Source: an uncultured Candidatus Saccharibacteria bacterium
Lineage (GTDB): Bacteria; Patescibacteriota; Minisyncoccia; UBA6257; 2-01-FULL-56-20
Assembly (NCBI GenBank): GCA_964456235.1
Contig: CAYWDX010000001.1
Span: 201,210 to 265,209, forward strand
Length of the DNA stretch: 64,000 nt
Reading direction: 5' to 3'
How positions within the stretch are numbered: the first letter of the stretch is position 1; every line of letters starts with the position of its first letter. The notes beneath the pieces were generated by a model. The model did no database searches. It was given only the letters and a program-made list of their open reading frames with translations, and was not told the DNA's origin. This document shows, piece after piece, positions 6,620 through 37,364 of this stretch. Both the position numbers and the translations under genes were made by a program.

Positions 6620-7119
6620 TTCTTCCTTTCGTAGACTTGGAACTCGTAGTCAACCGGATTTTTTTCGTCCCGCGAGTGCTTTTCAGAGTTGACGAGCTGC
6701 CAGTCGACATCGTTTAATGTTGGGAAAAATGTGTCGCCGGTCACCCGGTCGCGCACGCGCGTGAGATAAACCCGTTTCACGTGCGGGAGCGCCGTTTCAT
6801 AAACGCGCCCGCCGCCGATCACAAATATTTCCCCGCTGTCCCCGGCCAGCCGATTCTCCGCCGCGCGTATCGCATCCGAAAACGACTGCACCGCGATGCA
6901 TCCTTCCGCCTTCCACGCCGAATCCGTCGTTATCACAATGTTCACGCGGCCAGGCAGGGGTTTCCCGATCGATTCGAACGTTTTCCGCCCCATGATGACC
7001 GGGTGCCCCATCGTGAGCTCCTTGAAATGCTTGAGGTCGGCAGGAAGGTGCCAAGGGATTTTGCCGCCTGCACCGATCGCGCCGCCTTCATCAGTCGCAA
7101 CTATAATAGAGAGGTCCAT
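6616..7119 (-). CDS. folA: Dihydrofolate reductase
   Basis: 167 aa; MDLSIIVATDEGGAIGAGGKIPWHLPADLKHFKELTMGHPVIMGRKTFESIG matches the DHFR consensus. Convergent with and overlapping thyA by 4 nt. Confidence 0.9.
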   Translation of the reverse strand: MDLSIIVATDEGGAIGAGGKIPWHLPADLKHFKELTMGHPVIMGRKTFESIGKPLPGRVNIVITTDSAWKAEGCIAVQSFSDAIRAAENRLAGDSGEIFVIGGGRVYETALPHVKRVYLTRVRDRVTGDTFFPTLNDVDWQLVNSEKHSRDEKNPVDYEFQVYERKN

Positions 7120-7191
7120 CGGTATGATTATACACAGCTTTTCACGTCTTGCGCTTATGTTTGTCGAGGTGTTCTGCTAGAATCAAAGCAT

Positions 7192-8043
7192 ATGGGGACG
7201 CTCGAAAAGAAAACTCTTTGGTCAATCCTCGTCGGGGTTGTTATTCTCGGAGGTCTTTTAATCTATGTCTTCACCGGGAATCGTCACCCTGTCCAGAATG
7301 GCAATACCCAACCAACCTATGCGCCGAAGGGCGAGCTCGTTTCGGGTTTCCCGTCTAACTTGCTTCTCGATTCAAGCGCACCCATAACGCAGAGCTACTC
7401 CATGCATTACCCGTCGGGCGCCGTCCAGTATACCGCAGAATACCAGACGGCGCGCGATGCGGTCAGCGTGATCGCGGGGTACCAGACGCACCTCGGCGCC
7501 ATGGGCTGGAACGTGAGAATAAATTCGGCGGTGCAGACAAAGGCGATCGGCCTTTCGGGCGCTACCTCGACGGCATCAATTCTGGTTACTGCGGCACAAA
7601 TGCCACAAGGATCGGATGTGACGGTGAGCTACACGCTGAACGGCGCGAGTGATGCTAGCGTCGCGGGCAGCCCGCTTACTATAAAGAGCACTGACAACCT
7701 CTCGACAGTTCCAGCGCCGCTTACTGATCTCGCCGACTGGAGCCACGTTCATCCGTATGGCATCCAGACGCGTCAGCTCGCTGACGGTGGTACGCAGTAT
7801 CTCGCAAGCTGGAACACCGCGCATATGCCGCAGAATTATCAATCATTGAAAACGTACCTCACGGCCCAAACAAACTACGTACTCGTGCGGGATTCGTTTG
7901 ATGCGGCAAAAGGATTTTCAATGCATTTCACCCAGGGCTCTACGCTACTCGGCGTCATCGCGACGCCGATGCCAAAATCAGGATTTTTTACGATAACGTT
8001 TTCGCTCTACGAACCCGCTCACTCTCTATCATCAATGCCATGA
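7192..8043 (+). CDS. Hypothetical membrane-anchored/secreted protein
   Basis: N-terminal hydrophobic segment WSILVGVVILGGLLIYVF. The upstream part of ORF 6781..8043 is antisense to folA and therefore not coding. ATGA overlap with the next gene. Confidence 0.55.
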   Translation: MGTLEKKTLWSILVGVVILGGLLIYVFTGNRHPVQNGNTQPTYAPKGELVSGFPSNLLLDSSAPITQSYSMHYPSGAVQYTAEYQTARDAVSVIAGYQTHLGAMGWNVRINSAVQTKAIGLSGATSTASILVTAAQMPQGSDVTVSYTLNGASDASVAGSPLTIKSTDNLSTVPAPLTDLADWSHVHPYGIQTRQLADGGTQYLASWNTAHMPQNYQSLKTYLTAQTNYVLVRDSFDAAKGFSMHFTQGSTLLGVIATPMPKSGFFTITFSLYEPAHSLSSMP

Positions 8044-10628
8044 AGCATGTAACGAAAATCGCGGCCGTAGGATTTCTCGTCGCGGTCACGGCGGTTGCCG
8101 CCGTGAGCTTCGCGCCACATCGTTCGAATGCCCAGAGCGCTCCGGCCATCACACTTTGCGCTGGGAATTCTTCTCTGTCTGGCGGAGGCTCTAACGCTTA
8201 CCGCCGATTCGATGTGCAGTGCGTGACTGGGCCCTCGGTAAGCCTCTGGCACGGGATGGATCCTCAAACGATCACCATGAGCTGGGCTGGGCCGTCAACC
8301 TATACCGGACAAGATTTCAGCATCGCTTTTCAAGACAGCGAGAGCAATTCGGGTACGGGATGTTTTAACGGCGGGGGCAGCAACCCAAATTCAACGTACG
8401 CGACGACACCTCCGGTGAGCGCGGGTGGCGGGAGCGACATAGCCGTGAACGGCGGGTCTAACACGCCCGAATGTTTTTCTGCAAACATCATTTACAACCC
8501 CGGTTTCGTGAACAATGCGACGATCAATGGCGCCACTCTGTTCTGCTCAGGTAACACCTGCACCGTTTCACTTTCCACAAACGTGACGTCCGCCGGGGCA
8601 ACGTGCACCGTTGACTCTCCAACCGTCACATCCGGACAGGTGGCGACGTTCACCGTCACTCCTTCGGGAACTTTCACGATGACCAAAACAACTTCGCGTT
8701 TCGCTTTCATCGTGAAGCCGCTCCAAAATCTTGCTTCGGCGATTCAAGGATTCTTTAGTCCGCGCGCATATGGGAACCAGGCGCCGATACTGCAAAATGG
8801 TGGAGGCGGTGGCGGGGGTGGAGGAGGTGGCGGCACGGGGACGACCACGCCCAACTATTCATGGAACGCGAACCCGTCAGGAATGATCGCCTGCGGTAAT
8901 GCGGCGACGTGCACCACCGCACCACTTACCGCTTCGATCGCGCCCGGCCAGATCACGACCGTCGTCCAGAGCCAGAGCGGCGCGACTTCCGTGACCGCAA
9001 GCTGCCCCGGCGTCACCGTCGTGGGTGCGCCCGGAACCATCACCGTGAATTCGCAGAATTCCCAAACCGGCCAGCCGGTTGCGGCGACCTGGGATTTCCC
9101 GGATGCGTATGATCCATGCCAGAGCGCATCATGCTCAAACTTGACGTCTGCCACCTATAACAATGTTCCTTCTGAAAGCACTTACGAGCCAATTCCTTCG
9201 GGTTCAAGTCAACAAGGCCAGTTCGCTTTTAATACTTCGAGGGGCTTTGCTTCTATGGCGTTTGCTCCAAATTTCCTGAAGGGACTCGTGAACATTGCTG
9301 CTGCATACACCGTAGCACCGGGGCCCCAATACTTGCCCTCCGGTGGGACCGTTGCGTTTACTATTAATTGGGATCCTATCGCTGCACTCCAAATTTCTGC
9401 CGGAACGTCCGCGCTCACTTCTTCAAGTACGAATGACACGATCACCATCACGAACACCGGTGCGCCAGGATCGAACCTCACGTGGACTTCGAGCGTGAGC
9501 TACAGCCAGGGAAATAACTGGCTCACAGTTTCACCTGCTTCTAACGGAGCGGGCTTGGTCAACGGAACTTCTGGTAACGTATCGCAAAATGTGACGGTTA
9601 CGGCAAACCCCGCGGCCGTGGGCAACGTGCCGGGCACTTACAATGCGACGGTTTCCTTTGTCGGGAACTCGGAAACGTCATGCGCCGATAATATAGGCTG
9701 CCCCCTTCCCTCCACGCCACTTTCTGTTTCTCTCACTATCCCGAATCCCCCGCCGCCAGGCTCTTCGGTGAGCGGCGTGAGCGTTAGTTGTGTGCCGAGT
9801 TCGATCCAGGTGCAGCAGACGTCGGCATGTACCGCCGTCGTCTCGGGATCCGGCAGCTTCAATAACACCGTCGTTTGGAATACTAACTTTGGGACAATTA
9901 ATTCGAGTGGCGTTTACACCGCTCCTTCAAATGCGACGGGCACGGCGACCGTCACCGCGACCTCGGTCCAGGACAGTACACAGTCTGGAACGGCGACCGT
10001 GCAGGTTAGCGCGGCCGGATCCGGAATCCCGGGCAACGGCGCGAGTACGGTTACGAGCGTTACGATTAGTTGCAATCCGAGTCAGGTGAACACAAACGGC
10101 GTGAGCTCGTGCACGGGAGTCGTGAATGGCACCGGCAACCCGAGCCAGGCTATCACGTGGAGCACGAACTTCGGCTCGATCAACAGCGCCGGGACCTATG
10201 TTGCCCCTGGCGTCGCAGGAACCGCAACGGTTTTCGGCACTTCCGCCCAGGATCCAACCAAGAGCGACAACACAACGATTGATGTTACCACTCCGTCTGC
10301 TCCGCCCGGGCCGCCCGGCGGTGGTGGTGGAGGCGGTGGAGGAGGGGGTGGCGGTGTTGGTGCCCCAAGTTGTACCTTCTCGATCCAGCCGAACCGCATA
10401 ATCCCTCCGGCACAAGCGACCGTGAGTTGGTCTTGCACCAACAGTCCGACGTGCACACTCTCTGACGGAACGAACCCGCCGATGCCGGTGAATGCGACGC
10501 AGAGTATCCTCATCAGCCCAACGCGCACCACCGTCTACACGCTCTCCTGTTCCAATGCCGGCGGATCGTTTAACGCATCGAGCACGATCGTGGTCCAGGG
10601 ATCAAGAATTATTGAGATCAATCCGTAG
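8040..10628 (+). CDS. Large secreted surface protein with Ig-like (Big_2-type) repeats and two poly-Gly linkers
   Basis: Signal peptide MKHVTKIAAVGFLVAVTAVAAVSFA. Repeated TATVTATSVQD.T.SGTATV motifs. G13 and PPGPPG-G13 tracts are encoded by mixed GGN codons. Rich in S/T/N/G. Confidence 0.7.
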   Translation: MKHVTKIAAVGFLVAVTAVAAVSFAPHRSNAQSAPAITLCAGNSSLSGGGSNAYRRFDVQCVTGPSVSLWHGMDPQTITMSWAGPSTYTGQDFSIAFQDSESNSGTGCFNGGGSNPNSTYATTPPVSAGGGSDIAVNGGSNTPECFSANIIYNPGFVNNATINGATLFCSGNTCTVSLSTNVTSAGATCTVDSPTVTSGQVATFTVTPSGTFTMTKTTSRFAFIVKPLQNLASAIQGFFSPRAYGNQAPILQNGGGGGGGGGGGGTGTTTPNYSWNANPSGMIACGNAATCTTAPLTASIAPGQITTVVQSQSGATSVTASCPGVTVVGAPGTITVNSQNSQTGQPVAATWDFPDAYDPCQSASCSNLTSATYNNVPSESTYEPIPSGSSQQGQFAFNTSRGFASMAFAPNFLKGLVNIAAAYTVAPGPQYLPSGGTVAFTINWDPIAALQISAGTSALTSSSTNDTITITNTGAPGSNLTWTSSVSYSQGNNWLTVSPASNGAGLVNGTSGNVSQNVTVTANPAAVGNVPGTYNATVSFVGNSETSCADNIGCPLPSTPLSVSLTIPNPPPPGSSVSGVSVSCVPSSIQVQQTSACTAVVSGSGSFNNTVVWNTNFGTINSSGVYTAPSNATGTATVTATSVQDSTQSGTATVQVSAAGSGIPGNGASTVTSVTISCNPSQVNTNGVSSCTGVVNGTGNPSQAITWSTNFGSINSAGTYVAPGVAGTATVFGTSAQDPTKSDNTTIDVTTPSAPPGPPGGGGGGGGGGGGGVGAPSCTFSIQPNRIIPPAQATVSWSCTNSPTCTLSDGTNPPMPVNATQSILISPTRTTVYTLSCSNAGGSFNASSTIVVQGSRIIEINP

Positions 10629-10672
10629 CGGTGCGTGAGGCGCGAATCGCGCGCGATATAAATACAAAAGAA

Positions 10673-10711
10673 AGGCCCGCTGGCGAAGCCAGCGGGCTGT
10701 TGGTTTTTCTT
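10673..10711. terminator. Bidirectional rho-independent terminator between convergent surface-protein genes
   Basis: GCCCGCTGGC gaa GCCAGCGGGC hairpin flanked by A-run and T-run. Confidence 0.7.
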
Positions 10712-10721
10712 GCTGAAAATC

Positions 10722-12587
10722 TTACTGGAAAGCGACGAGGGAACACTGGGCGTACATGCATACGCCAATGCGTCCGTCGTTCGCCGAAAAGAAGCCAGCA
10801 CCGAGGAGTGCGCTCGTCGCGGTGAGCGGCGTCGCAACTCCGTTCGCGTCCACCTTCACAAAACGCGTGAGGCGGGCATTCGTATCGGCGTAAGCGACGA
10901 TGAATACCTGATGCGTCTCATCCGCGGCGAGCCGAAATGGCACGCCGGGGACGAGGCCTTGCAGGTTCACCGTGCGCGTGACCGTACGCGAGGAGAGCGA
11001 CACCACCGCGAGGAGCTGGTCGAAGCTGCTCAACACGGCCGCGTTGCCCGATGACGCCCCCGCATTGATCGCCGCCACCTGCCATCCACCGCTCGTCGCG
11101 TTGGGCAGCTGGGAGGAGCGAGTGAATCCGGTAAGCGCCGTCGTACCTCGAAGCGCCATCCCCGCCGTGTTGAAAACATACAGCGCGGGCGGCGAATCGT
11201 CCTTCGCGTAAGAAACTACGTCGAGTTCCCCGCCAACCAAAGCCATCGCGAGCGACCAGGGGAGGTTCCCAGCGTTGGCAGAAGTCGGCACGAGGGTGGT
11301 TTGGCTTGGATCGAAACAGGTCACCGCATTGCTGTTTGGCTGCGTGATGCAGGCCTGCTTCGATTTCGCCGCTACTCCGAATGCCTCTGTCCCACTATTG
11401 AGGCCGGCGACGGGATTTCCGGTCGATGGGTTGATGACCACCGAAGGATGTCCGATCAACGTCTGAGCGGAAATCACATACCCGGTCACGTCATCAACCG
11501 CGATTGCTGAATTGCCTCCAGGAAGGAAGGTGCGGTTCAGGGTGCCATCTGCGTTAAAGTAGATCGCCCCTGCGCTGCTCCCACTAGCATTCCCTTTGGC
11601 GAATTGGAAGAAGGTGCCATTCGCTGGATTCTTCGTCGCCGTGTTTTGGTCGCCGAGAAGCCCAATCGAACTAGTATTCGAAGTCGCACCGTTTGGGTCG
11701 CTCACTGAAATGTCGATCCAGCCAGCGGCCTGCTGCGGAGTTCCGAATGGCAACCCGATTGCTATCGAGGTCGGGCTGACGGTTCCCATGAGCACCACAT
11801 CGCCGAATGAAACCGCTGGTGCTATGTGGACCGTTTGCCCGGCGGCGAACCCCGAGCCGTTGATGGTTACCCCAAGAGCGGCTGGAGCGCCCGCGACGGC
11901 GAAATAGACGGTCGTGCGATTCAGCGAGTTGATCTGGAGCGCCGTGATCGTTACGGTTGCCGTCGCGGACTTTGTTGAGTCAGCAACGGACGTCGCCGTC
12001 ACGAGCACTTGCTTTGCGTTCGATACCGCAGGCGCCGCGTAAAGACCCGACGAGTTCACCGTGCCAGTTGGGGTGGTGTCACCTTGCGCGGCGTTTCTCA
12101 CCGACCAGGTAACCGACGCGTTCGCACTATTCGTGACCGTAGCCGCGAATTGCTGCGAACCGTTCGATGGCACCGTCGCGCTCGTTGGCGAAACAGCGAC
12201 CGTGACGGGGTTGACCGCTACGGTTGCCGATCCCGACTTCGACGCATCCGCGACCGCGGTCGCCGTGATCGTGAAGGTCGTGGCCGTTGCAACCGATGGA
12301 GCCGTGTAAACGCCGCTCGCTGTGATCGCGCCGACGGTCGTGTTACCGCCCGCGACACTGTTCACCGACCAGGTGACCGCCGTGTTCGTTGAATTGGTTA
12401 CGGTTGCCGTGAACTGCTGCGTGGCCCCCGTGTTGATCGTCGTCGGCCCCGCTGGCGAAACCGATACCGTGATGATTGGCGTGATTTGGGCCGACGTGTT
12501 GCCACTCGCGCCACCACCGCCGCAGCCTGTCAAAATGAACAGGCAGGCGGCGATCGCGAGTATCGCATTTACCGGAAGCGTCTTCAT
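10722..12587 (-). CDS. Surface lipoprotein with tandem Ig-like repeats
   Basis: Lipobox LTGC after a signal peptide (MKTLPVNAILAIAACLFILTGCGGGG). Tandem ~95-aa repeats of the TATVTNS.N..VTWSV type, also visible as nucleotide-level repeats. Confidence 0.7.
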   Translation of the reverse strand: MKTLPVNAILAIAACLFILTGCGGGGASGNTSAQITPIITVSVSPAGPTTINTGATQQFTATVTNSTNTAVTWSVNSVAGGNTTVGAITASGVYTAPSVATATTFTITATAVADASKSGSATVAVNPVTVAVSPTSATVPSNGSQQFAATVTNSANASVTWSVRNAAQGDTTPTGTVNSSGLYAAPAVSNAKQVLVTATSVADSTKSATATVTITALQINSLNRTTVYFAVAGAPAALGVTINGSGFAAGQTVHIAPAVSFGDVVLMGTVSPTSIAIGLPFGTPQQAAGWIDISVSDPNGATSNTSSIGLLGDQNTATKNPANGTFFQFAKGNASGSSAGAIYFNADGTLNRTFLPGGNSAIAVDDVTGYVISAQTLIGHPSVVINPSTGNPVAGLNSGTEAFGVAAKSKQACITQPNSNAVTCFDPSQTTLVPTSANAGNLPWSLAMALVGGELDVVSYAKDDSPPALYVFNTAGMALRGTTALTGFTRSSQLPNATSGGWQVAAINAGASSGNAAVLSSFDQLLAVVSLSSRTVTRTVNLQGLVPGVPFRLAADETHQVFIVAYADTNARLTRFVKVDANGVATPLTATSALLGAGFFSANDGRIGVCMYAQCSLVAFQ

Positions 12588-15173: not shown

Positions 15174-15701
15174 TTAGAATTCGATCAGGGATTTTGCTTT
15201 TTTGCCTTCGGCGAAGGGATGTTTGATCTCGCGCATCTCGGTTGCGAGGTCGGCGCGGTCGATGAACTCTTGCGGGGCGCCGCGGCCGGTCATGAGGAGT
15301 AATTTTTCTTCCGGATAATCATCCACGGCGTCGAGAACTTCCCGGACGGTGAGGAGGCCGAGCGAAGTTGCGACATTGATTTCATCAAGCACGATGAGCG
15401 CCCACTTGCCAGATTTTTTTTCTTCGGCAAATGCGGCGAGCGCCTGCCGAGCCGCCTCGCGATGCTTTTCGATGGGAAGTTTGTCGCCCAAGATGCCGAC
15501 GAAACCGAGACCCATCTTTCGTATTTCAAATTTTTCTTTTGGGATGTTGAGCTGCGCCGCGAGCCCGTCTTCACCCGAAACCCACGGGCCCTTGATGAAC
15601 TGAATCATGAGCGCCGCTTTCCCCCGACCCATCACCCGCACCATCTGGCCAAGCGATGCCGTCGTCTTCCCTTTCCCATTGCCGGTAAACACGATAATCA
15701 T
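15174..15701 (-). CDS. cobA: Cob(I)yrinic acid a,c-diamide (corrinoid) adenosyltransferase, CobA/BtuR type
   Basis: MIIVFTGNGKGKTTASLGQ (P-loop) plus conserved CobA/CobO core. The longer ORF N-terminal extension overlaps a tRNA and is rejected. Confidence 0.8.
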   Translation of the reverse strand: MIIVFTGNGKGKTTASLGQMVRVMGRGKAALMIQFIKGPWVSGEDGLAAQLNIPKEKFEIRKMGLGFVGILGDKLPIEKHREAARQALAAFAEEKKSGKWALIVLDEINVATSLGLLTVREVLDAVDDYPEEKLLLMTGRGAPQEFIDRADLATEMREIKHPFAEGKKAKSLIEF

Positions 15702-15775
15702 GGTGGGCACGCCTGGATTCGAACCAGGAACCGGACGTGTATAAGACGTCTGCTCTGCCGTTGAGCTACATGCCC
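15701..15775 (-). tRNA. tRNA-Ile with anticodon TAT (UAU), CCA encoded
   Basis: Reverse complement GGGCATGTAGCTCAACGGCAGAGCAGACGTCTTATACACGTCCGGTTCCTGGTTCGAATCCAGGCGTGCCCACCA folds as a canonical 75-nt cloverleaf with anticodon loop CUUAUAC. Confidence 0.65.
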
Positions 15776-16543: not shown

Positions 16544-16617
16544 GCGGGTATCGTATAACGGCATTACCGCAGGTTTCCAACCTGCTGACAGGGGTTCGAC
16601 TCCCCTTACCCGCTCCA
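16544..16617 (+). tRNA. tRNA-Gly (anticodon TCC), CCA encoded
   Basis: GCGGGTATCGTATAACGGCATTACCGCAGGTTTCCAACCTGCTGACAGGGGTTCGACTCCCCTTACCCGCTCCA closely resembles the E. coli tRNA-Gly(UCC) layout. Confidence 0.85.
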
Positions 16618-16789
16618 AGCCCTTGACATTTCTGACCAAATATTCCGCGACGATAAATATCCCCCAGAAAACTGCCTGCGGTTTCTTTCAGTGTAGGTGG
16701 TTATCTCATTCCTACAAGAGACGAAACGGGAATGGGTCGAACCCTTCTTCTATGGGGATAGGTTCTGGAAGGGTCGGGGTGAGATCTGT

Positions 16790-16922
16790 TTTGCAATGCA
16801 TACCGCTAACGACATGTGCGTTCTCGATTCCATCGGCGGGGACATACAGTGTGACAGTGACCAACCCAAATCAACCAGGCGGCGTTACCGCGAGTGCATC
16901 GGCGACGTTTGCGGTGCAGTGA
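16790..16922 (+). pseudogene. Orphan C-terminal fragment paralogous to the C-terminus of the 32469..34547 secreted protein
   Basis: Frame ends ...TCAFSIPSAGTYSVTVTNPNQPGGVTASASATFAVQ*, compared with ...SFTTSFANPGTYSVTVTNVPAGASSQSASCAVTIQ* at 34547. No intact N-terminal part is present. Confidence 0.5.
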
Positions 16923-17384
16923 ACATCGGCAGCCGATCCAGGCCCGTATCGCAGGGATAAGCAGTCGTCGTGCGACTCATGTTGACAATATCGGGTAGGG
17001 TGTTCCGCGCAGCAATTATCTTACGGGAGGACGCAAAGCAGCCACGAATGAGTGAGCGCACAGAAAACCAAGTGAATATACACTCCGAGCTGCCACGCAA
17101 GTATTCCTGGAACCAATAATATCGTTGCGATCCTAGCGTGGCCAGACTTGTATAGTTGAATGATAAGGAAAAGCTCCGCTAGGAAAGCGACATTCATGAC
17201 CGCGGAAAGCAAGATGCACAAGATGATGGCTATTACTCGCACCCAATCGACTCGATTGTTCGTCGCAATCGGTGTCGAGGCGGAGCCTCTGTCATTCATA
17301 GACTTAATTAAAGAGCACCTGCAGATGTTGTCAAGTGGGCCTGGCCTACCGCACGACTCTCTTCGATAGATGGTTATGGCACGT

Positions 17385-17458
17385 CTGGCGTCATAACAAA
17401 ACGCGCCTTCGTAATCCGACACCAGTTGGTTATGAAGGCGCGTTTTGTTATGACGCCA
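17385..17458. repeat. 23-bp perfect inverted repeat (GCGTCATAACAAAACGCGCCTTC) with a 26-nt spacer
   Basis: Both arms read from the sequence; located in the degraded region downstream of tRNA-Gly. Confidence 0.8.
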
Positions 17459-17529
17459 AGCCCGTCTCGGAAGACGCGCCGCATCGAAGCTGGGTGCCTG
17501 CGTGGCGAGCGCCTTATATGTAGGCCTGA

Positions 17530-17665
17530 CGGGGCTCGGTTCCTTGCGAAAGAACACTTGCGCTCCACCCGCAAATGGTTCGCAGTACAGACGATGCTCG
17601 GGGAAGAGCGCGATGATCTGCCGTGCAATTCGGTTCTTGCCTCCGATATAAGGGAGCGGGCCTGT
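17530..17665 (-). pseudogene. N-terminal remnant of a Dam-family (D12 class) N6-adenine DNA methyltransferase
   Basis: GPLPYIGGKNRIARQIIALFPEHRLYCEPFAGGAQVFF matches the Dam motif X/I region. The frame then diverges and no DPPY motif follows. Confidence 0.5.
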
Positions 17666-17961
17666 GCGCATGAAATTGGAGCAGCCTCGGAAACGCCTGC
17701 TCCTGCGAGCCGAAAGGAGGCACCCGTGAGGTGGGTGAGCATAAAACCCGCAAACTGACTCATGAAGAATGATCACGCGGCTTCAGGGATCGCAGGAAGC
17801 AACGGAATATTCCCCGCTGTTTCCTTGTGATTCTCGAAAAAGGTTCGAACGTCGCGGACAATGCCGCTCAAAAGACAAGCAAGACAGGGCCGACTTTGAC
17901 AAAAGTTCATTTTCACTGTATTATATCGCCAGTACTAGATCAATTGAAAAAGGAGGGACCT

Positions 17962-18756
17962 GTGTCCCAACACGAAGATAAAAGTGAAGAAACTGGCGCG
18001 ACTGGGAACCCCTCCTCAAAAGAGGGTTCACCCAGCCAAAACCCCAAACAAGATCTTGTCCCAGCAGAACGCTACTCATTGACGCCGGCAAATCCAATCA
18101 TCGTTGGACTTTCCAGAGCATTTCATTGGACTCCGGCCACGGCGATCACTCGCATCGAGCAAGCACTTCCCGACAAATTTGAACAGCAAGTGTATCTTGG
18201 GGTTGCGGAGAGTTTCCGCATTCATCCAGAATCGCTTGCGAAGCTGCTTCGGCTGTATCGCGGGTCGAAGCCTCTTTCCGTCCACGACCTGGAACGCCGT
18301 CCGATGGGGCAGAATGTCGTTTCGAATTCATTCGGTGATTTTTCCGATTTTTTCGAGGCGTGCATGAACCTGGTGAAGGTTGTCGCGAAGGAATTTGAGG
18401 CGTTCAGCATCAACATGGAGTTCGCCGCTCGTATTGTGCTCGCATATGGACCCAACAATCCGGAGCAGGTGATCGAAATGATCGATGCGAATCTCGATGA
18501 GTGCTGCGATTTCTTCGGGATCAGCAAGTATCGAGGATACGGCGCGCGTCTTCGGATCTGCACATGGTATTTCGTCGATAGATTACTGCCCGAGCTCATG
18601 AACCGAGGGGTACCAAATGTTCTTGATCCGGATGAATTCATCGGCGACAGAGCGCTGCAACGCTATTGTCTCGGTGAAGAATCCGCATCGGAGCGCCGCG
18701 ATCCCGATTTTGAGCGGCAGCTCCACGATCTCCTTCATGGAGGAGGTGTTTCATGA
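17962..18756 (+). CDS. Hypothetical protein, first gene of a two-gene operon
   Basis: GTG start 5 nt after AAAGGAGGG. The ORF also remains open upstream to the GTG at 17827. ATGA overlap with the next gene; no recognisable domain. Confidence 0.5.
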   Translation: MSQHEDKSEETGATGNPSSKEGSPSQNPKQDLVPAERYSLTPANPIIVGLSRAFHWTPATAITRIEQALPDKFEQQVYLGVAESFRIHPESLAKLLRLYRGSKPLSVHDLERRPMGQNVVSNSFGDFSDFFEACMNLVKVVAKEFEAFSINMEFAARIVLAYGPNNPEQVIEMIDANLDECCDFFGISKYRGYGARLRICTWYFVDRLLPELMNRGVPNVLDPDEFIGDRALQRYCLGEESASERRDPDFERQLHDLLHGGGVS

Positions 18757-19913
18757 GTATCGAGCAACAGCTTCGGATGCAACTCTCAAAAGCGTTTGGA
18801 AGCACTCCGTGGGATGAAAACCCATTGGTGACCATCGGACTCAGCCATGCAATTTTGGGTCTTAAGGTTACCGACCAACAACTCTACCGAATCGTTCGTA
18901 GCTATATCCGTCAACTCGTGGCTGCGGTACATCCGGATGTAAACGTCGTGCGAACGGAAGTTCAGACGGATGATGCCAAGAAGATCCTCGTCGCGTTCGA
19001 TCTGCTCGACAGAGAAGAAACCTTCCTTAAGGCGTTGGAGGAGTTTCGCATTCTCAAGTCGGACGAGCGTTCTGAGATCGGCGTCCTCCGTGCTGGCGCT
19101 CGCAGTCTGAAGTCGCGCCTTGCGGGTATCGAAAACCAGATTGACGCGGTAGTTAGGGGTCAAAAAGCACTGGTAATCGAAAAGGGCATCTTTGCAAGAG
19201 AAAAGAGAGAACACGCGGTTATCGCGCAAGAGCGAGAACGAGAGAGAGAGGTGCTTTTGAGGCGAGTTTCTCACCTGAAGACTCAGATCGAGAACAAGCT
19301 CAATGAATCGCGCCCATGGAAACTCAAGTTCGAGCAACTGGCAACATATACCGCCAATCTCGGCAAAGAAAAGGGAGATGGCATCTTCGCTTTTGAGGCG
19401 CGGTGGATTGTTGTCGCGTATCTCCGACGCGGAGTCATATCCCGCTCTTTAACGGCCGTCGATCGATTCGGGACAGCTCGCAGGGAGTTCTCTCAGGCTG
19501 CACGGGACTTTCCTCTCGAGTTGCCTAAACTTCTGAACCTTTGGCAGAAAGTGGAAAAGAGGTTCGGGCGACCCGATGCGGGAGAGATCACGAAAGGAAG
19601 CAGACATTGGTCCCTAGGAATCAGCCTCATCCACCTGCGGGCAGGCGAACAGGAAGTGGTGTACGGCGATCGAACCGGGTCAAGCGGGCGGGTTATTGGG
19701 TCTATCCCACCTGCTGTATTGGGGTGTGTAAAACGCTCTCACCTCAAGAGTATCCTTGACCAAGACCATGCTTGGGGCGTCATGTCTCCTTTCTTGGTTA
19801 GGGGAGGGCTATTGCTCTCTATCTCTGTCGACCCCACTAAGCGGTATGTGTGGAGCCGGACTTGCCCGGAATTTCGCATCAACACCAAACGGTTCATCCT
19901 TGCCCTGGGGTGA
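18753..19913 (+). CDS. J-domain (DnaJ-like) protein with uncharacterised coiled-coil and C-terminal domains
   Basis: N-terminus ILGLKVTDQQLYRIVRSYIRQLVAAVHPDVN...AKKILVAFDLLDREETF has the helix II-HPD-helix III pattern of J-domains. The remaining ~300 aa have no known match. Confidence 0.6.
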   Translation: MSIEQQLRMQLSKAFGSTPWDENPLVTIGLSHAILGLKVTDQQLYRIVRSYIRQLVAAVHPDVNVVRTEVQTDDAKKILVAFDLLDREETFLKALEEFRILKSDERSEIGVLRAGARSLKSRLAGIENQIDAVVRGQKALVIEKGIFAREKREHAVIAQEREREREVLLRRVSHLKTQIENKLNESRPWKLKFEQLATYTANLGKEKGDGIFAFEARWIVVAYLRRGVISRSLTAVDRFGTARREFSQAARDFPLELPKLLNLWQKVEKRFGRPDAGEITKGSRHWSLGISLIHLRAGEQEVVYGDRTGSSGRVIGSIPPAVLGCVKRSHLKSILDQDHAWGVMSPFLVRGGLLLSISVDPTKRYVWSRTCPEFRINTKRFILALG

Positions 19914-19937
19914 TTGATCTTCATTATCACGGTGCGT

Positions 19938-19977
19938 GTTACCAGTAAAATGGTGGCACGCACCTTTTTTGTTCTTA
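19938..19977 (+). terminator. Rho-independent terminator
   Basis: GGTGCGTG ... CACGCACC stem followed by TTTTTTGTT, after the J-domain gene. Confidence 0.6.
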
Positions 19978-20183
19978 AACTATCCGGAGATCATGCTAAT
20001 AGTTCGCTTATTAATAAATAAAAGAAAGGGCCGCCAGCAATGTGACGGCCCGAAGGTAGAAAACTTGCGTATGAGTACGCCGAGGCGAATTTCGCCAGAA
20101 CCGGTTGGGACCGGAGATAAATGAAAGTGATTATTACAATGTAACTACAATTAGTTTAGGGCTTTATCTATCTGGCCACAAGC

Positions 20184-21377
20184 CTAACCTGTGGATAACC
20201 TGTAGAAGCGCTTTTTGCCCACTCGCATGACCTCACCGCCGTTGATTTTCAAGCTTTCCTGGGGCGCCCTTACTACCTTGCCGCCTACTTCAAAACCGCC
20301 TTGTTCGATCAGCCGCCGCCCCTCTCCGTTACTCTTCAAGCTGCCCGAAAGCATCACGAGCTCGAGCGCCGTGAGAGATTTCTTCTTTATGGTAAGGACT
20401 GGGATATCCGCGGGAATTTCTTTTTTCGAAAACAGCGCCTCGAATTTTTCTTTTGCTGCGGTCGCCTCTTTCTCGCCGTGATAGCGTTTTGCAACTTCAA
20501 AGGCCAAACGTTCCTTCAAGAGTTTCGGATTGATTTTCTTTTTTAATAATTTCTTAACCTCGGCGATTTCACCAAGAGGCATGTCGGTCGTCATTTCAAA
20601 ATATTCGGGGATCAATTCATCCCGGAGCGCCATGACTTTGCCAAACTGCTCGTCGGCGGTGTCGGAAACATTAATGGTATTCCCCCAGCTTTTTGACATT
20701 TTGCGGCCATCCGGGCCAACCAGAAGCTTTGTTGTCAAAATGTTTTGCGGCTTTTGGCCGTAATGCTCCTGAATTTTCCGCCCCGCAAGCAAGTTGAACA
20801 GCTGGTCGGACCCGCCGAGCTCGACGTCTGCCTTCACCGCCACGGAATCGTATCCCTGATAGAGCGGGTAGTGGAATTCGCGCAAACTGATTTCTTCATG
20901 CTTCTCCCAACGAGTTTTAAAATTGCGGCGCTCGATCATTTGGCGGATGGTGAAGAGATCGGCGAGCGAATCGAGTTCATGAAGCGAAAGTTTTTTGAGC
21001 CACTCGCTATTGTAGCGGATTTCGGTTTTCCGCAAATTCAAAATATTCCCGATCTGCGGCAAATAATTTTTCAAATTTTTCTTGACCTGGTCGGCGCTCA
21101 GCATAGGCCGCTGCGAAATCTTGTCGGATGCGTCGCCGATCTGCGCCGTGAAATCGCCAATAATAAGGACGGCGGTGTGGCCGAGCCCCTGGAACGCCCG
21201 CAGCTTCCACAAAACCGTGGCATAGCCGATATGGATAAACTCCCCCGTCGGATCAATCCCCAATTTCACGCGTAACTTCTTTCCTGAAGCGAGTGCCGCT
21301 TCGAGATTTTTTGAGTCAACCACTTCCTCAACATTCCGTGTGAGAACATCGCGAATCTTGTTCATATCCACCGCCAT
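20184..21377 (-). CDS. tyrS: Tyrosyl-tRNA synthetase
   Basis: HIGH-region equivalent (FIHIGYATVL), KMSKS motif (RKMSKSWGN) and C-terminal S4-like domain. Confidence 0.9.
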   Translation of the reverse strand: MAVDMNKIRDVLTRNVEEVVDSKNLEAALASGKKLRVKLGIDPTGEFIHIGYATVLWKLRAFQGLGHTAVLIIGDFTAQIGDASDKISQRPMLSADQVKKNLKNYLPQIGNILNLRKTEIRYNSEWLKKLSLHELDSLADLFTIRQMIERRNFKTRWEKHEEISLREFHYPLYQGYDSVAVKADVELGGSDQLFNLLAGRKIQEHYGQKPQNILTTKLLVGPDGRKMSKSWGNTINVSDTADEQFGKVMALRDELIPEYFEMTTDMPLGEIAEVKKLLKKKINPKLLKERLAFEVAKRYHGEKEATAAKEKFEALFSKKEIPADIPVLTIKKKSLTALELVMLSGSLKSNGEGRRLIEQGGFEVGGKVVRAPQESLKINGGEVMRVGKKRFYRLSTG

Positions 21378-21444
21378 AATGCTTGTATCGTATCATGAAT
21401 TTTTGGTATTCTAAAGACAGATCGTTGCGTCCATAAGGAGGCAT

Positions 21445-21708
21445 ATGATTTCCGAACTTGATGTTCTCAGCGAGTGGATCCCGGAGCAAATGCGGCCGGG
21501 AACGGTCTTCGTTTTGCAGAACGCCGGCGAAGTCGGCGACAGCGAGGATCCGTACTGGGCAGCCCTTGCGTGCCCCGAGTGTGGCATGCTGGGGCTCATC
21601 ACCAAGAGACAGGCCGCTGGATTGCTTCCGGTAATCTGCGGCTCGGAGAAATGTTCCGCCTCCTTCCGCATCCGCGACGAGGCGTTCATCGCCATCCGAC
21701 CAAGCTGA
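21445..21708 (+). CDS. Small hypothetical protein with a putative C4 zinc ribbon (CPEC...CGSEKC)
   Basis: Strong SD AAGGAGG 6 nt upstream of the ATG. Confidence 0.5.
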   Translation: MISELDVLSEWIPEQMRPGTVFVLQNAGEVGDSEDPYWAALACPECGMLGLITKRQAAGLLPVICGSEKCSASFRIRDEAFIAIRPS

Positions 21709-21825
21709 ACGCAAAATTAATCTCTCTCCATAAACGGCCGCACACTATCCGCTAACCTCCCGCCGGTATCCTCACGCCACAGGAGCAGCAGAAAACAGCG
21801 AACGGATTGCACCATTGGGGAGTAT

Positions 21826-21876
21826 AAGGGAGGCCCGGCACGTTCTCACGTGCCGGGCCTATTATTTTATTTTCGA
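21826..21876. terminator. Bidirectional terminator between the small gene and clpP
   Basis: GGCCCGGCACG ttctca CGTGCCGGGCC followed by a T-run. Confidence 0.7.
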
Positions 21877-21885
21877 TTACGCGCG

Positions 21886-22485
<600 letters not shown>

Positions 22486-25913: not shown

Positions 25914-26010
25914 TGGATATTGAGTTGTTATTTAGTTTTATTTTTCTGACTTTTTTTCTCGTTCTCGCCGACGGGCTTTCCACCGACCAACCATCGCCAC
26001 CGGTCTCACT

Positions 26011-26050
26011 CCTGCGACATGCCCTTTAAAAAAGTCCGCTCACGAGCGGA
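26011..26050 (-). terminator. Rho-independent terminator downstream of yraN
   Basis: GTCCGCTCGTGAGCGGAC followed by TTTTTTAAA on the minus strand. Confidence 0.6.
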
Positions 26051-26104
26051 CTCCACACATGCCATTATTGTACTCGTTTTTTTATTTCTGTCAATTTGCC
26101 GCTA

Positions 26105-26497
26105 TCAAATGTTTTTGTAGTGCCGCATGGCGATCGGATTGCCACTTTCGGATAGATCGACCGCGATGAGGTCGATCCGCCAACCAATCTCATCATCTAT
26201 AAGGTCTTGATTTCGGCGAGCAAAGATTTGGCGGGCAAAGAACTGTGCGGTCCGGTTGAGTTTACGAAGTTTTGCGGCCGATAGGTTGTCTTCGGGTGAA
26301 AAACCTCCTCGTTTTACTAAGGCCTTGACCTCTACGAAGACCAGCACCCTGATCGTGTCAATAGCTACGATATCCACCTCATCCGACCGATTTCTTTGAT
26401 TTCTAGCCAGAATTCTCCACCCTTTTTTTATCAAAAACTGGCATGCGACCTCCTCGCCGATATGCCCATTTCTAGCCGATTTTCTTATGAACTTCAT
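26105..26497 (-). CDS. yraN: YraN-family (UPF0102) endonuclease-like protein
   Basis: GEEVACQFLIKKGWRILARNQRNRSDEVDIVAI...LVFVEVKA matches the YraN consensus. Confidence 0.75.
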   Translation of the reverse strand: MKFIRKSARNGHIGEEVACQFLIKKGWRILARNQRNRSDEVDIVAIDTIRVLVFVEVKALVKRGGFSPEDNLSAAKLRKLNRTAQFFARQIFARRNQDLIDDEIGWRIDLIAVDLSESGNPIAMRHYKNI

Positions 26498-26538
26498 TAA
26501 GTTTTAATTAAAAATTTATTAATTATTCGATAATCTTT

Positions 26539-26652
26539 TTAATTGTGTTTATCGGTAAACACAATTTAAATTCAAATAATTTTAATTATGTTTACCGGTA
26601 AACATATTTTTAATCATTAAATCAATTTTAATTGTGTTTATCGGTAAACACT
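26539..26652. promoter_or_regulatory. Three operator/iteron-like palindromes TGTTTA(Y)CGGTAAACA spaced ~44 bp apart
   Basis: Sites at 26541..26566, 26588..26605 (perfect 18-bp palindrome ATGTTTACCGGTAAACAT) and 26631..26652, in an AT-rich intergenic region between yraN and the dksA-like gene. Confidence 0.6.
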
Positions 26653-26907
26653 TTGTGGAACATTTTTGTTTAACATCAAGTAAAATGGGCTTTATAGCGG
26701 ATTTGAATTAAAAAGAAATTATTAAAAATAATGCGGAAATGCGGCAAAAATCGTATGCGGAAATTGCCGGATAGCTTTGCCGGATTAATTAGGCAATTTA
26801 TAGACATAGATTCCGGCAATTGCCTTAATATTTTTTTAATTAAATTTTGTACTTCATTAAGTCTTAATGTTTTCGTTTTTTGACTCGGTCGGTTAGAATT
26901 TGATTCA

Positions 26908-27243
26908 ATGACTGACAAAAATTTTGATGAGTATAAAAAGAAACTCGAAGGGGAGCGCCGGATGCTCCTTGCGGAGATAAAACAGGCCGAACGACCGCCA
27001 CGGTTTGGTGATGCGGAGGATCCTGATTGGGATGAGAAGACCGACGAAGCGGAGGAGTTATCAAAGCAACTTGCCATCGCGGGAGATCTCAAGAAGCGAC
27101 TGGACGAGATCGACATCGCTCTCTCAAAAATTTATTCAGGCAAGTATGGTGTCTGTGAAAAATGCGGCGGTGCCATCGAGCGTGAGGTATTGGAGGTTGA
27201 TCCCGCATCCCGGCTTTGCAAAGATTGCAAATCACGATCGTAA
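26908..27243 (+). CDS. DksA/TraR-family C4-type zinc-finger protein
   Basis: Coiled-coil N-terminus and a C-terminal CEKCGGAIEREVLEVDPASRLCKDCKS zinc finger. Confidence 0.75.
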   Translation: MTDKNFDEYKKKLEGERRMLLAEIKQAERPPRFGDAEDPDWDEKTDEAEELSKQLAIAGDLKKRLDEIDIALSKIYSGKYGVCEKCGGAIEREVLEVDPASRLCKDCKSRS

Positions 27244-32468: not shown

Positions 32469-34547
32469 ATGATAGATGTGAAGAAGTTTGTCAGCGCCTT
32501 CTTGATTTTGGCCGCCTTGACGGCTTCCGGGGTGCTGCTCGTGAACTTCTCCGGCCGAATGCCGGCCGCTCCGACCGCCGGATCTATCACGCAGAATGGC
32601 TCGGTCCCAACGAATGCCTTCGCCCCTGAAAGCGCCTCTCTCCCGAATGATGCATCCGGGGGTACCGACATTAATGCTGCTATCACCTCTGACCCTAACA
32701 ATCTCACGAATCAACTGGCTGATTCGCTCCTTACGAACGTGATCACGGCGAACCCAAACGGCCCGCAGGACGATGGCAGCGGCGACGGGTTGTTGACACC
32801 ACCCGATCCCAATGCGGTGATTGCCGGCATCGACCCGAATGTTTACCGAAAGGTGACAATCCCTGACTGGGATTTTGAGGCGGCGATGCTTTCAGCTCAC
32901 ACCTCGGTGGCGGCGTCGAATTCTGACATCGCTCATTATGCGTCCGACGTAAGTTCCATCTTGGGCGACGTCAACCGCCAGGCAACCGCATTCGATGCGC
33001 AATCCACCGGCGAAGCCGACCTTGCGGCTTTGCATTCGCAAACTCAAACTTCGATTCAAAAATTGGCGAGTCTTACGATTCCAAAAGATCTTGCGAGCTT
33101 CCACAAGAATCTCGTCAACGTTTTGGTGTATCAAAAGAATGCACTCGCGCTCGTCGAGTCAGCTTCGAACGATCCCTTCAGGGCATCTCTCACGCTCGAA
33201 GCAGAGACGCCGAAATATCAAGTCGCTGCGCAGAAACTTCAGAAGGCCGCACAGGCCGCCGAAGCAAGCGGCGTGCTTTCGCTCCTCCCCAAGGATTCGT
33301 CAAACGGCGAAAATCGTTTATTGGCTGCCGTTCATTCGCTTATCGGCATTCCCACCGCGCACGCATTCATCGTCTTTGACCCAATAGCCGATGCGCAGAC
33401 GACGATCACGGCAACACAGCTCATCCTGCAGATCGTGAAGAGCGCGCTTTTACAGATTCTTAAGAATACTCTGATCACAATCATCCAAAACCGCGTTTTG
33501 GGTTTTATAAAAAATAACGGAAATCCGAAGTTTATTCAGGATTGGGGGCGATATGTTTCGGATGCATTTAACTTAACTGCGGGCGGCGCTCTCGGCCAAA
33601 TCGTTCCTGGTCTTTGCAATAATTTCAGCCCTCAAGTGACGCGGTGGCTTCAAAATTCTTTCCCGGGGGCGAGCATCATTCCTGGCGGAACATCGCTGAA
33701 CGGTGCGGCAGGAACAAACTGCTCCCTCCAAGGCGTAGCCGCGAACCCAAATTTCTATAACAACTTCTCGGCCGCGGGGCCGGACGCAGGATTTCAAGGG
33801 TTTATTTCATTGCTTAGTCCACAGAACAATCCCTTCGGTGCCTTCGCGGAAGCGCACGATGAAATATCCTTCCTTTCGAATGCTGCTGCAGGCGCCACTC
33901 AAAACAAAGCGGTATCTTCTGGTGGGTTTATAGGCCAAGAAATTTGCGGCGACGGATCAACGCCGAGCTCCGTTTTCACCTATTGCCAGGTGGGGCACGT
34001 TAATGCGAACGGGAGTTCCTGCGTGAACAGCAATGGATCAACCGTGGGAACGCCTTTCAGGCAAAGGGGTTGTGCTGATAGTAACCAGCCGTTTGTCACC
34101 GCTCCGGGAAGGACGATCGGCGATACGCTTTCGAATACTCTCGGCGCGAATATACACCTCGTCGTAAACGCTAACGACATTATCGGACTTGCGGCCACGA
34201 TTGGCGCGTCGCTTCTCGAGCAATTTGTAGCAGCTGGCATCCACGGTTTGATCACGACCCAGCCCGCAGGCACGGGTGCTGTTCCGACCACCGCACCGAG
34301 TCTGCCGCCGTTGGCTTGCATCCCAAGCCAACTCATTGCTTCGAGCAGCGATGTACTTGTTCTTAGTAGCACGGGGGGCGATGGCCTCAATTATGATTGG
34401 GTTGCGTTCGGTGGCAATCCTTCGAGCGGATCTGGAGTTTCATTTACAACATCATTTGCCAATCCGGGGACTTATAGCGTGACCGTTACGAACGTCCCGG
34501 CGGGAGCAAGCAGTCAGAGCGCATCCTGCGCCGTCACCATCCAATAA
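32469..34547 (+). CDS. Large secreted/membrane-anchored protein, first gene of the T4SS-like operon
   Basis: N-terminal TM FLILAALTASGVLLVNF, 692 aa with S/T/N/G-rich extracellular domains. Its C-terminal motif PGTYSVTVTN also occurs in the orphan fragment at 16790..16922. Confidence 0.6.
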   Translation: MIDVKKFVSAFLILAALTASGVLLVNFSGRMPAAPTAGSITQNGSVPTNAFAPESASLPNDASGGTDINAAITSDPNNLTNQLADSLLTNVITANPNGPQDDGSGDGLLTPPDPNAVIAGIDPNVYRKVTIPDWDFEAAMLSAHTSVAASNSDIAHYASDVSSILGDVNRQATAFDAQSTGEADLAALHSQTQTSIQKLASLTIPKDLASFHKNLVNVLVYQKNALALVESASNDPFRASLTLEAETPKYQVAAQKLQKAAQAAEASGVLSLLPKDSSNGENRLLAAVHSLIGIPTAHAFIVFDPIADAQTTITATQLILQIVKSALLQILKNTLITIIQNRVLGFIKNNGNPKFIQDWGRYVSDAFNLTAGGALGQIVPGLCNNFSPQVTRWLQNSFPGASIIPGGTSLNGAAGTNCSLQGVAANPNFYNNFSAAGPDAGFQGFISLLSPQNNPFGAFAEAHDEISFLSNAAAGATQNKAVSSGGFIGQEICGDGSTPSSVFTYCQVGHVNANGSSCVNSNGSTVGTPFRQRGCADSNQPFVTAPGRTIGDTLSNTLGANIHLVVNANDIIGLAATIGASLLEQFVAAGIHGLITTQPAGTGAVPTTAPSLPPLACIPSQLIASSSDVLVLSSTGGDGLNYDWVAFGGNPSSGSGVSFTTSFANPGTYSVTVTNVPAGASSQSASCAVTIQ

Positions 34548-36099: not shown

Positions 36100-36107
36100 T
36101 TTAGAAC

Positions 36108-37364
36108 ATGATTTTAGTTGATCAGATAACAGAACAAGAATTGGATCGGAGATTCGATAGCCTTTCTATAAAACTAAGAGATGCGCTCACATCGGAGCGA
36201 AATCTAAATATCGTTAGTGATATTTGTGAGAAAAATAAAATTCTCGACAAAGAAAAGGCGGCGGCTATTCACCAAATAATCGGTTTAACGATACTTGGCT
36301 TTGCTCACTATTATGATATCGGTAAAGAAATAAACGAGTCGTTGTCATTAAATAATTCAAAATTTTCTAATGATATCGCTGAAGAAATAAATGCTAAAAT
36401 TTTTTCTCCAATCAAAGATGATTTAGAGAATAATTATCATCCCATCATTAGTGAAGTTGCCAAAACACTAACCCCCGCCAAGATTCTTCAACCTGAAGAA
36501 AAAAAATTGCCGAAAATATTGACTGAAATAGCGACGCCGCAGGCGATCAAGCCGGCGCCGATACCAATATCAATCCCCATTCCCACGCCCACTCCTCCGC
36601 CCAAGCCCGCGGGCGTGCCAGTCCCCATGCCTTCGGTCCTCTCGCAATCGGCCGGCGCGTCGGCCAAGGTTGGGATCGCCCAGGTCACGCCCGATCGCTT
36701 GAAACCCGCGGCGCCTCCACCGCCTGGCTGGTCAAAAGCCCGGTCAGGGGAACCAGTCGTGAAGCTTAGCGGCCCCGTGATGCCCGCGCCTCCGGTCCCG
36801 CCCGGATCCTTAAATAAAATGCCGAGTGGACCAGCGGTGACGGTATCTATCACCCCACCAACGGCGCCTGCCGCACCAAAAATGCCGACGGCATCATCAG
36901 CGCCGATCGCGAAGCCATCCGAACCGGCGCCGATTCTGATCCACGAAGATGCATCGCTGCGGCCGCAGCAAAAAATTCCTGACTTCCATTTCCCGATCAC
37001 TCCGGACACGACAAAAAAAGAGTCAACTGCGCCGCCGCTCAAGCCCGCGATCCTCGAGCTTGGTAAAAATGCTCCGAGCGGTATGGCGAACACTGCGGCG
37101 CTAAAGCCGAGCACCGTTGCCTCGACCCGCGTCGTCCATTACACCGAATATAAATCGCCGACGCCGGAGACGCCGATCAAACCGGTAGCGCCGCAGGGGC
37201 CGCGGCAGGTGACAGAACTCACCATGCAAAAGCCGGCGCCGCGAACGATGCCCGCTGCAGCGACACCGCCGAAACCTCCGCTCAACCCGTCGCTGCCGCC
37301 GGGGCCGCCAAGTCCTTCGAGCTCGCCGCCCGTTCCGCCAGGACTGCCGCCGCAAAAGAAATAG
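36108..37364 (+). CDS. Proline-rich protein with an AT-richer N-terminal domain
   Basis: ~140-aa N-terminal domain followed by ~270 aa rich in P/A/S/K (PxP, PPPP runs). Confidence 0.5.
   Translation: MILVDQITEQELDRRFDSLSIKLRDALTSERNLNIVSDICEKNKILDKEKAAAIHQIIGLTILGFAHYYDIGKEINESLSLNNSKFSNDIAEEINAKIFSPIKDDLENNYHPIISEVAKTLTPAKILQPEEKKLPKILTEIATPQAIKPAPIPISIPIPTPTPPPKPAGVPVPMPSVLSQSAGASAKVGIAQVTPDRLKPAAPPPPGWSKARSGEPVVKLSGPVMPAPPVPPGSLNKMPSGPAVTVSITPPTAPAAPKMPTASSAPIAKPSEPAPILIHEDASLRPQQKIPDFHFPITPDTTKKESTAPPLKPAILELGKNAPSGMANTAALKPSTVASTRVVHYTEYKSPTPETPIKPVAPQGPRQVTELTMQKPAPRTMPAAATPPKPPLNPSLPPGPPSPSSSPPVPPGLPPQKK

Follow-up and report, generated by a model that had tools for sequence, protein, structure and literature searches.

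A stretch of 64,000 nucleotides from an uncultured Candidatus Saccharibacteria bacterium (contig CAYWDX010000001.1, positions 201,210 to 265,209; hereafter the window) contains, from the 3' end of a tRNA-Gly(TCC) gene to the end of tyrS, an interval of 3,566 bp. Its left part (16618-17961) is poor in genes, and an operon of two intact genes follows. We call these genes A and B, the second of which encodes a J-domain protein. We consider it probable that the interval is a lineage-specific hotspot of insertion and replacement, where non-functional debris lies beside a live, acquired A-B module, and that B would act as a specialized Hsp70 co-chaperone for A.

A lineage-variable site between tRNA-Gly and tyrS

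The left boundary of the variable interval is the tRNA-Gly(TCC) gene on the plus strand (16544..16617; found by ARAGORN, Rfam score 58.8 bits), and the right boundary, set by synteny, is the convergent tyrS gene on the minus strand (20184-21377), for which a terminator scan placed a terminator-like hairpin at 20028..20051 on the same strand. We mapped the window genes and tRNAs onto 80 metagenomic loci (numbered with the prefix L) carrying TyrS relatives at 47-81% identity. The order (hppA-)clpP-(zn87)-tyrS-[gap]-tRNA-Gly(TCC)-hyp198-tRNA-Ile(TAT)(-ftsH) is kept, as far as the contigs reach, in L019, L022, L027 and L033, and L031 shares it from clpP to hyp198 only. The gap measures 1007, 720, 1728 and 689 bp, respectively, in the first four loci and 284 bp in L031, as against 3566 bp in the window. 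Neither A nor B occurs in any of the 80 tyrS loci, including the five with the same flanks, and blastn and tblastx detected no cargo common to the relatives' gaps, or shared with the window, at the DNA or protein level. In the gap of L027 (locus positions 8183-9910) there is a gene resembling Gam of phage Mu (PF07352, E = 1e-31), and an alignment across tRNA-Gly showed that similarity to the relatives ceases exactly at the tRNA 3' end. Because the contents of the gaps are mutually unrelated and partly phage-derived, and because homology stops at the tRNA 3' end, the interval qualifies as hypervariable; the comparison shows a lineage-variable insertion site that extends from the tRNA 3' end to the tyrS terminator. 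The island-like nature that the original prediction had assigned to this interval is supported to this extent, since five relatives with the same flanks lack the operon and have 284-1728 bp of unrelated sequence in its place.

The tRNA-Gly of the window encodes its 3' CCA (16612-16617, …GCTCCA), whereas the five relatives (L019, L022, L027, L031 and L033) read …GCTCA(A/C); the encoded CCA may be due to chance or may be a trace of the replacement of the 3' end during insertion. Two further observations concern the same neighbourhood. The L027 gap also has a short open reading frame (ORF) with a prepilin-like hydrophobic N-terminus and no Pfam match, and the tRNA-Ile(TAT) gene (window 15701-15775, minus strand) is conserved beside hyp198 in L019, L022 (two tandem copies), L027 and L033. 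AUA is decoded in most bacteria by a lysidine-modified CAU tRNA, and a genomic UAU tRNA-Ile is unusual.

The gene-poor stretch of about 1.3 kb directly 3' of tRNA-Gly(TCC) proved, as first described, to contain no credible gene. Beyond the remnants detailed below, the ORF list and Pfam gave no family support in 16618-17961, and the further ORFs of 16618-17961 and 19914-20183 had zero Pfam matches. A non-coding RNA in this stretch was likewise rejected, the Rfam matches at E ≤ 1 being tRNAs and a chance hairpin match to a plant microRNA model (31 bits versus a cutoff of 67).

On the minus strand, 17534..17671 (ATG at 17671) encodes an N-terminal stub, of about 46 codons, of a Dam/D12 N6-adenine DNA methyltransferase. 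Residues 36-84 of the reading frame align to the first 38-50 positions of the family profiles, with E-values of 4.3e-8 for Pfam PF02086 (positions 1-38 of 253), 4e-15 for PHROG phrog_56, 1.5e-12 for PADLOC MTase_II and 3e-5 for NCBIfam TIGR00571. The N-terminal 45 or so residues thus fit the Dam/D12 family (PF02086, TIGR00571), and they retain its FxGxG-type motif for binding S-adenosylmethionine (EPFAGGAQVFF), but the stub holds only positions 1 to about 50 of profiles of some 250-280. Everything downstream is missing, including the DPPY motif, and no catalytic (D/N/S)PP(Y/F/W) motif was found in any of the six frames of 16618-17960. Judged by these profiles, the stub is a genuine pseudogene remnant that would not yield a functional methylase, in agreement with the remnant originally proposed on this strand.

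A possible second remnant, on the plus strand at 16790..16922, could be what is left of the C-terminus of a surface protein of the PKD-like or Ig-like type (it reads …GTYSVTVTN… and ends in a stop codon), and had been taken for a paralog of the C-terminus of the protein encoded at 32469-34547. The resemblance covers a short segment (BLASTP E = 0.002, with 12 of 18 residues identical around GTYSVTVTN; 22 identities over a 28-nt stretch at the DNA level). It is weak as an indication of paralogy: GTYSVTVTN is a generic PKD-type strand motif, the fragment has no Pfam match, and tblastx at E ≤ 0.01 returned nothing. The NCBIfam CoaZ repeat matches the fragment below cutoff (E = 9e-4), and the full 32469-34547 protein is itself borderline for PKD (E = 9e-4, below the Pfam cutoff). 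Farther on, an open frame on the minus strand (17021..17299) would encode a strongly hydrophobic peptide of 92 residues with two to three hydrophobic segments; it has no ribosome-binding site and no Pfam family match, and may represent either a remnant or a gene for a small membrane protein.

The 23-bp perfect inverted repeat originally reported at 17385..17458 is real and somewhat stronger than claimed. It forms a long hairpin (17386..17458) with arms of 29 nt (17386-17414 and 17430-17458) that pair over 25 perfect positions, one mismatch and three further pairs around a 15-nt loop, with a folding energy of -62.2 kcal/mol (z = -12.7), and it is located about 75 bp past the end of the Dam similarity, along that strand. 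No T-run follows it on either strand, which rules out a canonical intrinsic terminator, and it is not among the terminator-like sites of our terminator scan. A repeated element, or a miniature inverted-repeat transposable element, was also discarded, as the hairpin is present in a single copy in the window plus 97 fetched loci and is absent from IMG/VR.

The A-B operon and its products

Unlike its surroundings, the A-B operon is intact and self-contained. Gene A (17962..18756) starts with GTG and encodes a helical protein of 264 aa, gene B (18753..19913) encodes a protein of 386 aa, and both are on the plus strand, with the stop codon of A and the start codon of B overlapping in ATGA, in keeping with the two-gene operon proposed at the outset. 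On the same strand, a consensus scan returned a promoter-like site at 17896-17924 (TTGACA, 17 nt, TATTAT; 11 of 12 matches), whose function is predicted from the consensus match alone, and a Shine-Dalgarno sequence, AAAGGAGG, precedes the GTG start at about 17949-17957. Downstream of B, a terminator scan identified an intrinsic terminator (19931..19974, plus strand), whose 14-bp stem runs into TTTTTTGTTC. Over 17824-20913, the window and an independently made Logan assembly (SRR12313479) agree at 100% identity. The Logan contig stops at 17824, in the space that separates the Dam stub from the A-B promoter; strains may differ there, or the stop may be no more than a unitig break.

In the model of the gene A product (predicted local distance difference test score, pLDDT, of 76.9), a variable, disordered tail at the N-terminus (residues 1-33) precedes a core made up entirely of helices (45-236). 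Ten homologs show 43-66% identity, and divergent copies in L094, L095, L096 and L098 were recognized by profile comparison with probabilities of 99.4-100%. Residues E74, Q75, Y78, D109, E168, D175, Y193 and R198 are invariant across this divergent set. The model had no convincing structural match, and a sequence-profile search of the PDB was empty at E ≤ 10. Neither A nor B had a match in PADLOC-DB 2.0 at E ≤ 1, and our searches show that the two form a conserved paired family that is absent from the four protein-family libraries examined (Pfam, NCBIfam, PHROGs and PADLOC).

Relatives of B numbered 145 in an exhaustive phmmer search that covered 1.84 billion cluster representatives. Around 50 of these share its architecture of about 385 residues, a second group of 25 members has 420-500 residues, some of them matching this C-terminal domain weakly, and there are also shorter or truncated forms. 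An AlphaFold2 model from a 41-sequence alignment (mean pLDDT 87.5) divides B into a J-domain (residues ~24-86, nt 18822-19010), a single long helix or coiled coil (88-202, nt 19014-19358) and a C-terminal alpha/beta domain with a GRVIGSIP motif (203-386, nt 19359-19910). In the J-domain, the modelled helices 41-59 and 71-85 flank an HPD at residues 60-62, which fits J-domain topology, and in a profile comparison the family lines up in register with solved J-domains (2ej7, E. coli DnaJ 1bqz/1xbl and CbpA 2kqx) across helix II, HPD and helix III (E = 1e-5 to 3e-3). Twenty-five of the 41 aligned members match Pfam DnaJ (PF00226) at E ≤ 0.1, the best at 8e-6. Across the family, 114 of 147 N-domains have HPD and 141 of 147 have HxD, and the basic residues of helix II are widespread (R/K at position 53 in 137/147 and at position 49 in 106/147). 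At the level of sequence, these comparisons show the N-domain to be a genuine but divergent J-domain subfamily, and the intact HPD first noted in this protein is confirmed.

The helix at 88-202 has, in its best heptad register, hydrophobic residues at 61% of the a/d positions, versus 37% overall. The C-terminal domain was modelled very confidently and had no match among PDB structures or in BFVD (nothing below E = 0.1). Glycines and hydrophobic residues make up most of its conserved positions, with R313 and S317 in addition; since these are not of a catalytic type, the domain looks like a binding domain rather than an enzyme. A separate set of short proteins (P0013-P0020, 143-187 aa) consists solely of a B-type J-like domain and a short coiled coil and occurs, without an A-like gene, in contexts that look non-CPR (Candidate Phyla Radiation), with Kdp and prismane genes. 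The gene for one of them, P0018, in L008-L011 (6001-6486 in L008/L009), sits at the point where variable DNA on its upstream side gives way to four unannotated genes that form a conserved block.

From this architecture we propose that B would be a class-C J-domain protein whose helix II-HPD-helix III surface docks on DnaK/Hsp70 and triggers ATP hydrolysis, whose helix of about 115 residues, as modelled, may dimerize it as a coiled coil, and whose C-terminal domain would hold a specific partner. That partner or client is most likely A, because A is an obligate and translationally coupled neighbor; B would then contact A physically and bring DnaK to A or to a target bound by A. A motif scan found no dnaK in the 64-kb window, the rest of the genome not being covered. 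Precedents for this model are the class-C J-domain proteins of the CbpA-CbpM and HscB-IscU pairs and AtcJ, of the Shewanella network in which a specialized J-domain protein has dedicated partners (PMC6715715; for a general review, PMC8215388), together with the phage protein Rki (PMC3486835).

B resembles class C (type III) J-domain proteins (CbpA-CbpM, HscB-IscU, DjlA, AtcJ) in having a J-domain with HPD fused to a non-DnaJ region for binding clients or partners, a candidate partner in the same operon, and the presumed role of targeting DnaK to one task. In contrast, outside the J-domain B has no similarity to them in sequence or fold, with its coiled coil of about 115 residues and its unmatched C-terminal domain; A is unrelated to CbpM, IscU and the Atc proteins, as judged by the lack of family matches; and the partner gene comes first in the A-B order. 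The A-B family is best seen as a variant of operon-encoded specialized J-domain systems, with a presumed function.

Distribution of the A-B pair

A-B pairs occur on 10 other contigs, in seven distinct chromosomal neighborhoods plus one phage-like region. In L001, L002/L003/L004, L005, L006, L013, L094, L095, L096/L097 and L098, a B-like gene is immediately preceded by an A-like gene, and the pairing holds wherever sequence upstream of a B-like gene is available, including for divergent B subfamilies. Stop and start codons overlap in seven of nine loci. The identities of A and of the B N-domain are correlated (Spearman 0.67), with a p-value that is overstated by the non-independence of the pairs.

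The pair follows rpsI in L001 and msrB in L005, lies between secY and adk in L002-L004, between rmuC and ppa in L013 (a Minisyncoccia metagenome-assembled genome) and between dnaB and cysS in L094, and occupies other chromosomal contexts in L095 and L098. The other named genome among the species representatives hit by our pattern scan, L012, is a Candidatus Saccharibacteria metagenome-assembled genome. Similarity by blastn between A-B loci is limited to the coding regions, and conserved non-coding sequence around the pair was consequently rejected, no bracketing repeats having been found either. In L002, a hairpin directly after secY and upstream of A-B (7647-7722; 30-nt arms, 97% complementary, 16-nt loop) is alike in geometry to that of the window and unrelated to it in sequence; it is AT-rich, with T-runs, and may simply be the secY terminator.

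In L096/L097 the pair is found in a phage-like region of small same-strand ORFs, with a portal gene bearing intein-like inserts and with phrog_2971 and phrog_990. The A protein of this phage-like contig is 52% identical to that of the window, as close as the chromosomal copies are. The portal region of L096 (8069-13302) appears split or interrupted: three consecutive ORFs match one segment of about 80 residues of phrog_85, and in two of them there are portal segments as well, a pattern that points to insertions of inteins or homing endonucleases. No tblastn match to A or B was obtained among GenBank phages (50,697 records) or PLSDB plasmids (72,556 records), and scans of IMG/VR were negative. 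As far as we have seen, the family is restricted to CPR-type genomes and one phage-like contig, and this sporadic distribution is a further difference from the class C systems.

A viral precedent exists in Rki, a J-domain protein of the T4-like phage RB43 that acts via the host DnaK (PMC3486835). One A-B pair, next to phage portal and PHROG genes, likewise places a J-domain protein on a mobile or viral genome. Unlike Rki, most A-B copies are chromosomal and B is always accompanied by A, with no match in GenBank phages or IMG/VR; outside the J-domain, homology to Rki was neither sought nor found. The phage-like copy suggests a link to the interplay of phages and their hosts.

Other features of the window comprise its lowest-GC kilobase (26001-27000; 0.383), which has a minus-strand ORF of 130 aa and an ORF of 111 aa with a C-terminal CxxC…CxxC motif, and two regions (6781-12587 and 34549-37364) with large ORFs (420, 862, 621, 516 and 418 aa) that have no Pfam match at E ≤ 1e-5.

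Origin and significance of the A-B module

The lower GC content originally reported for the region is not a significant deviation. GC is 0.520 in the region and 0.539 in the window, and GC z-scores are -0.4 to -0.6. Relative to 41 window genes, A has z-scores of -1.4 for GC at third codon positions and +1.5 for codon-usage distance; the corresponding values of B are -1.0 and +0.85. With GC and codon usage within the native range, a compositional island was rejected. A direct repeat of the tRNA-Gly 3' end, which would mark an attachment (att) site, was sought in the 5.4 kb downstream (16641-22000) with exact 11-mers, 14-mers with one mismatch and 17-mers with two, on both strands, and 20-mers with three mismatches on the plus strand only; none was found. 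No ORF or Pfam match in 16618-20183 corresponds to an integrase or recombinase. Repeats bracketing A-B are absent from the window, L001, L002 and L094, and there is no transposase domain; lacking terminal repeats, a target-site duplication and a transposase, A-B was discarded as a transposon or insertion sequence.

These results bear on the proposal that the region is an old integrated element with pseudogene remnants, of which the variable tRNA-adjacent site and the Dam pseudogene hold up; an integrase, an att repeat and a significant compositional shift are lacking, and the operon is not decayed. In its classical form, a prophage or genomic island would have entered once at tRNA-Gly through an integrase and since decayed, with Dam, the PKD-like gene and A-B as its cargo. 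Such an element would account for the position directly 3' of the tRNA gene and the end of homology at its 3' end, for the best match of the Dam stub being a phage methyltransferase family (phrog_56, 4e-15), for the Mu Gam-like gene in the same interval of a relative, for A-B beside a portal gene in the phage-like contig and, if the 3' end was replaced, for a CCA encoded in the tRNA-Gly of this genome only. However, it leaves the missing integrase or recombinase, the absence of any 11-20-mer tRNA repeat within 5.4 kb and the native GC and codon usage unexplained, and A-B is found elsewhere without Dam or phage genes, packed tightly between housekeeping genes. Additionally, the operon is intact whereas its neighbors are debris, which suggests that they have different histories. 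We therefore regard a single classical element as possible but doubtful; with its hallmarks missing, and an intact A-B present elsewhere, a repeatedly used hotspot of insertion or recombination is the better reading. Known tRNA-gene-associated islands and integration hotspots, such as the Klebsiella Asn tDNA islands (PMC4891358), offer a comparison. The shared traits are variable cargo directly 3' of a tRNA gene that differs between relatives, pseudogene remnants and phage-derived genes; the differences are the lack of an integrase, an att repeat and a compositional signature, and the very small size of the interval (0.3-3.6 kb).

An acquired module at a hotspot, with B as co-chaperone of A, is thus the reading that we favor, and A-B would have reached the tRNA-Gly/tyrS site as an accessory module by a route that we can only infer. 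Several observations weigh against it. The region and A-B have a native-like composition, the module is not marked by repeats at its flanks or by an integrase or a transposase, and four of about nine chromosomal contexts (L001, L002, L094 and L098) lie in or near the ribosomal-protein superoperon. Our comparison covered relatives with a TyrS identity of 81% or less, which are too distant to order or date the events. As for the role of B, its own match to PF00226 (12.7 bits, E = 0.15) is below the cutoff of 27.8, 22% of the family lacks a canonical HPD, and both the binding of A to B and the action of B on DnaK are predictions.

A rather unlikely alternative is that A-B is a conflict module, either anti-phage/abortive-infection or addiction/toxin-antitoxin-like, in which one protein would be an effector whose activity the J-domain protein controls via the Hsp70 of the host; this would explain both its sporadic, mobile distribution and its presence in a phage. 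Alternatively, A-B might be an old, vertically inherited accessory pair of CPR bacteria, linked to proteostasis or translation and shuffled by rearrangement, with the gene-poor stretch as ordinary decaying intergenic DNA. In support of this, four contexts are part of the ribosomal S10-spc-alpha region or neighbor it (L001 after rpsI and L002 between secY and adk, with L094 and L098 within 3-5 kb of infA/rpsM-rpsK-rpsD), the window pair is found among ftsH, clpP, nusA and tyrS, composition is native, and mobility genes and repeats are absent; the superoperon contexts may indeed reflect old vertical linkage with local rearrangement, and not mobility. Nonetheless, A-B is missing beside tyrS in 80 of 80 related loci, five of them with the same flanks, and its insertion between secY and adk breaks an adjacency that is near-universal. 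Moreover, set against how many CPR genomes there are, the family is rare, and it has a close copy in a phage-like contig, so that we consider vertical inheritance unlikely. It is equally improbable that A-B is an undescribed system moving horizontally among CPR bacteria and phages, in which the coiled-coil J-domain protein would couple the host Hsp70 cycle to an effector A (maybe a lysozyme-like hydrolase or a DNA-binding factor), as a chaperone-gated module of conflict or takeover rather than a housekeeping co-chaperone.

On present evidence, A-B is an interesting uncharacterized family and no surprise for the field. The ways in which mobile DNA gets into the very small genomes of CPR bacteria (Patescibacteria), and the accessory functions that it brings, are poorly understood, and this locus is a compact tRNA-adjacent hotspot with turnover among relatives and without the usual integrase/att signature. 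The architecture of B, in which a long coiled coil links a J-domain to an unmatched C-terminal domain, corresponds to no family or structure that we searched. If it is true that B recruits DnaK to A, the pair would add a new case in which Hsp70 is directed to one specific task, in bacteria whose chaperone networks are minimal.

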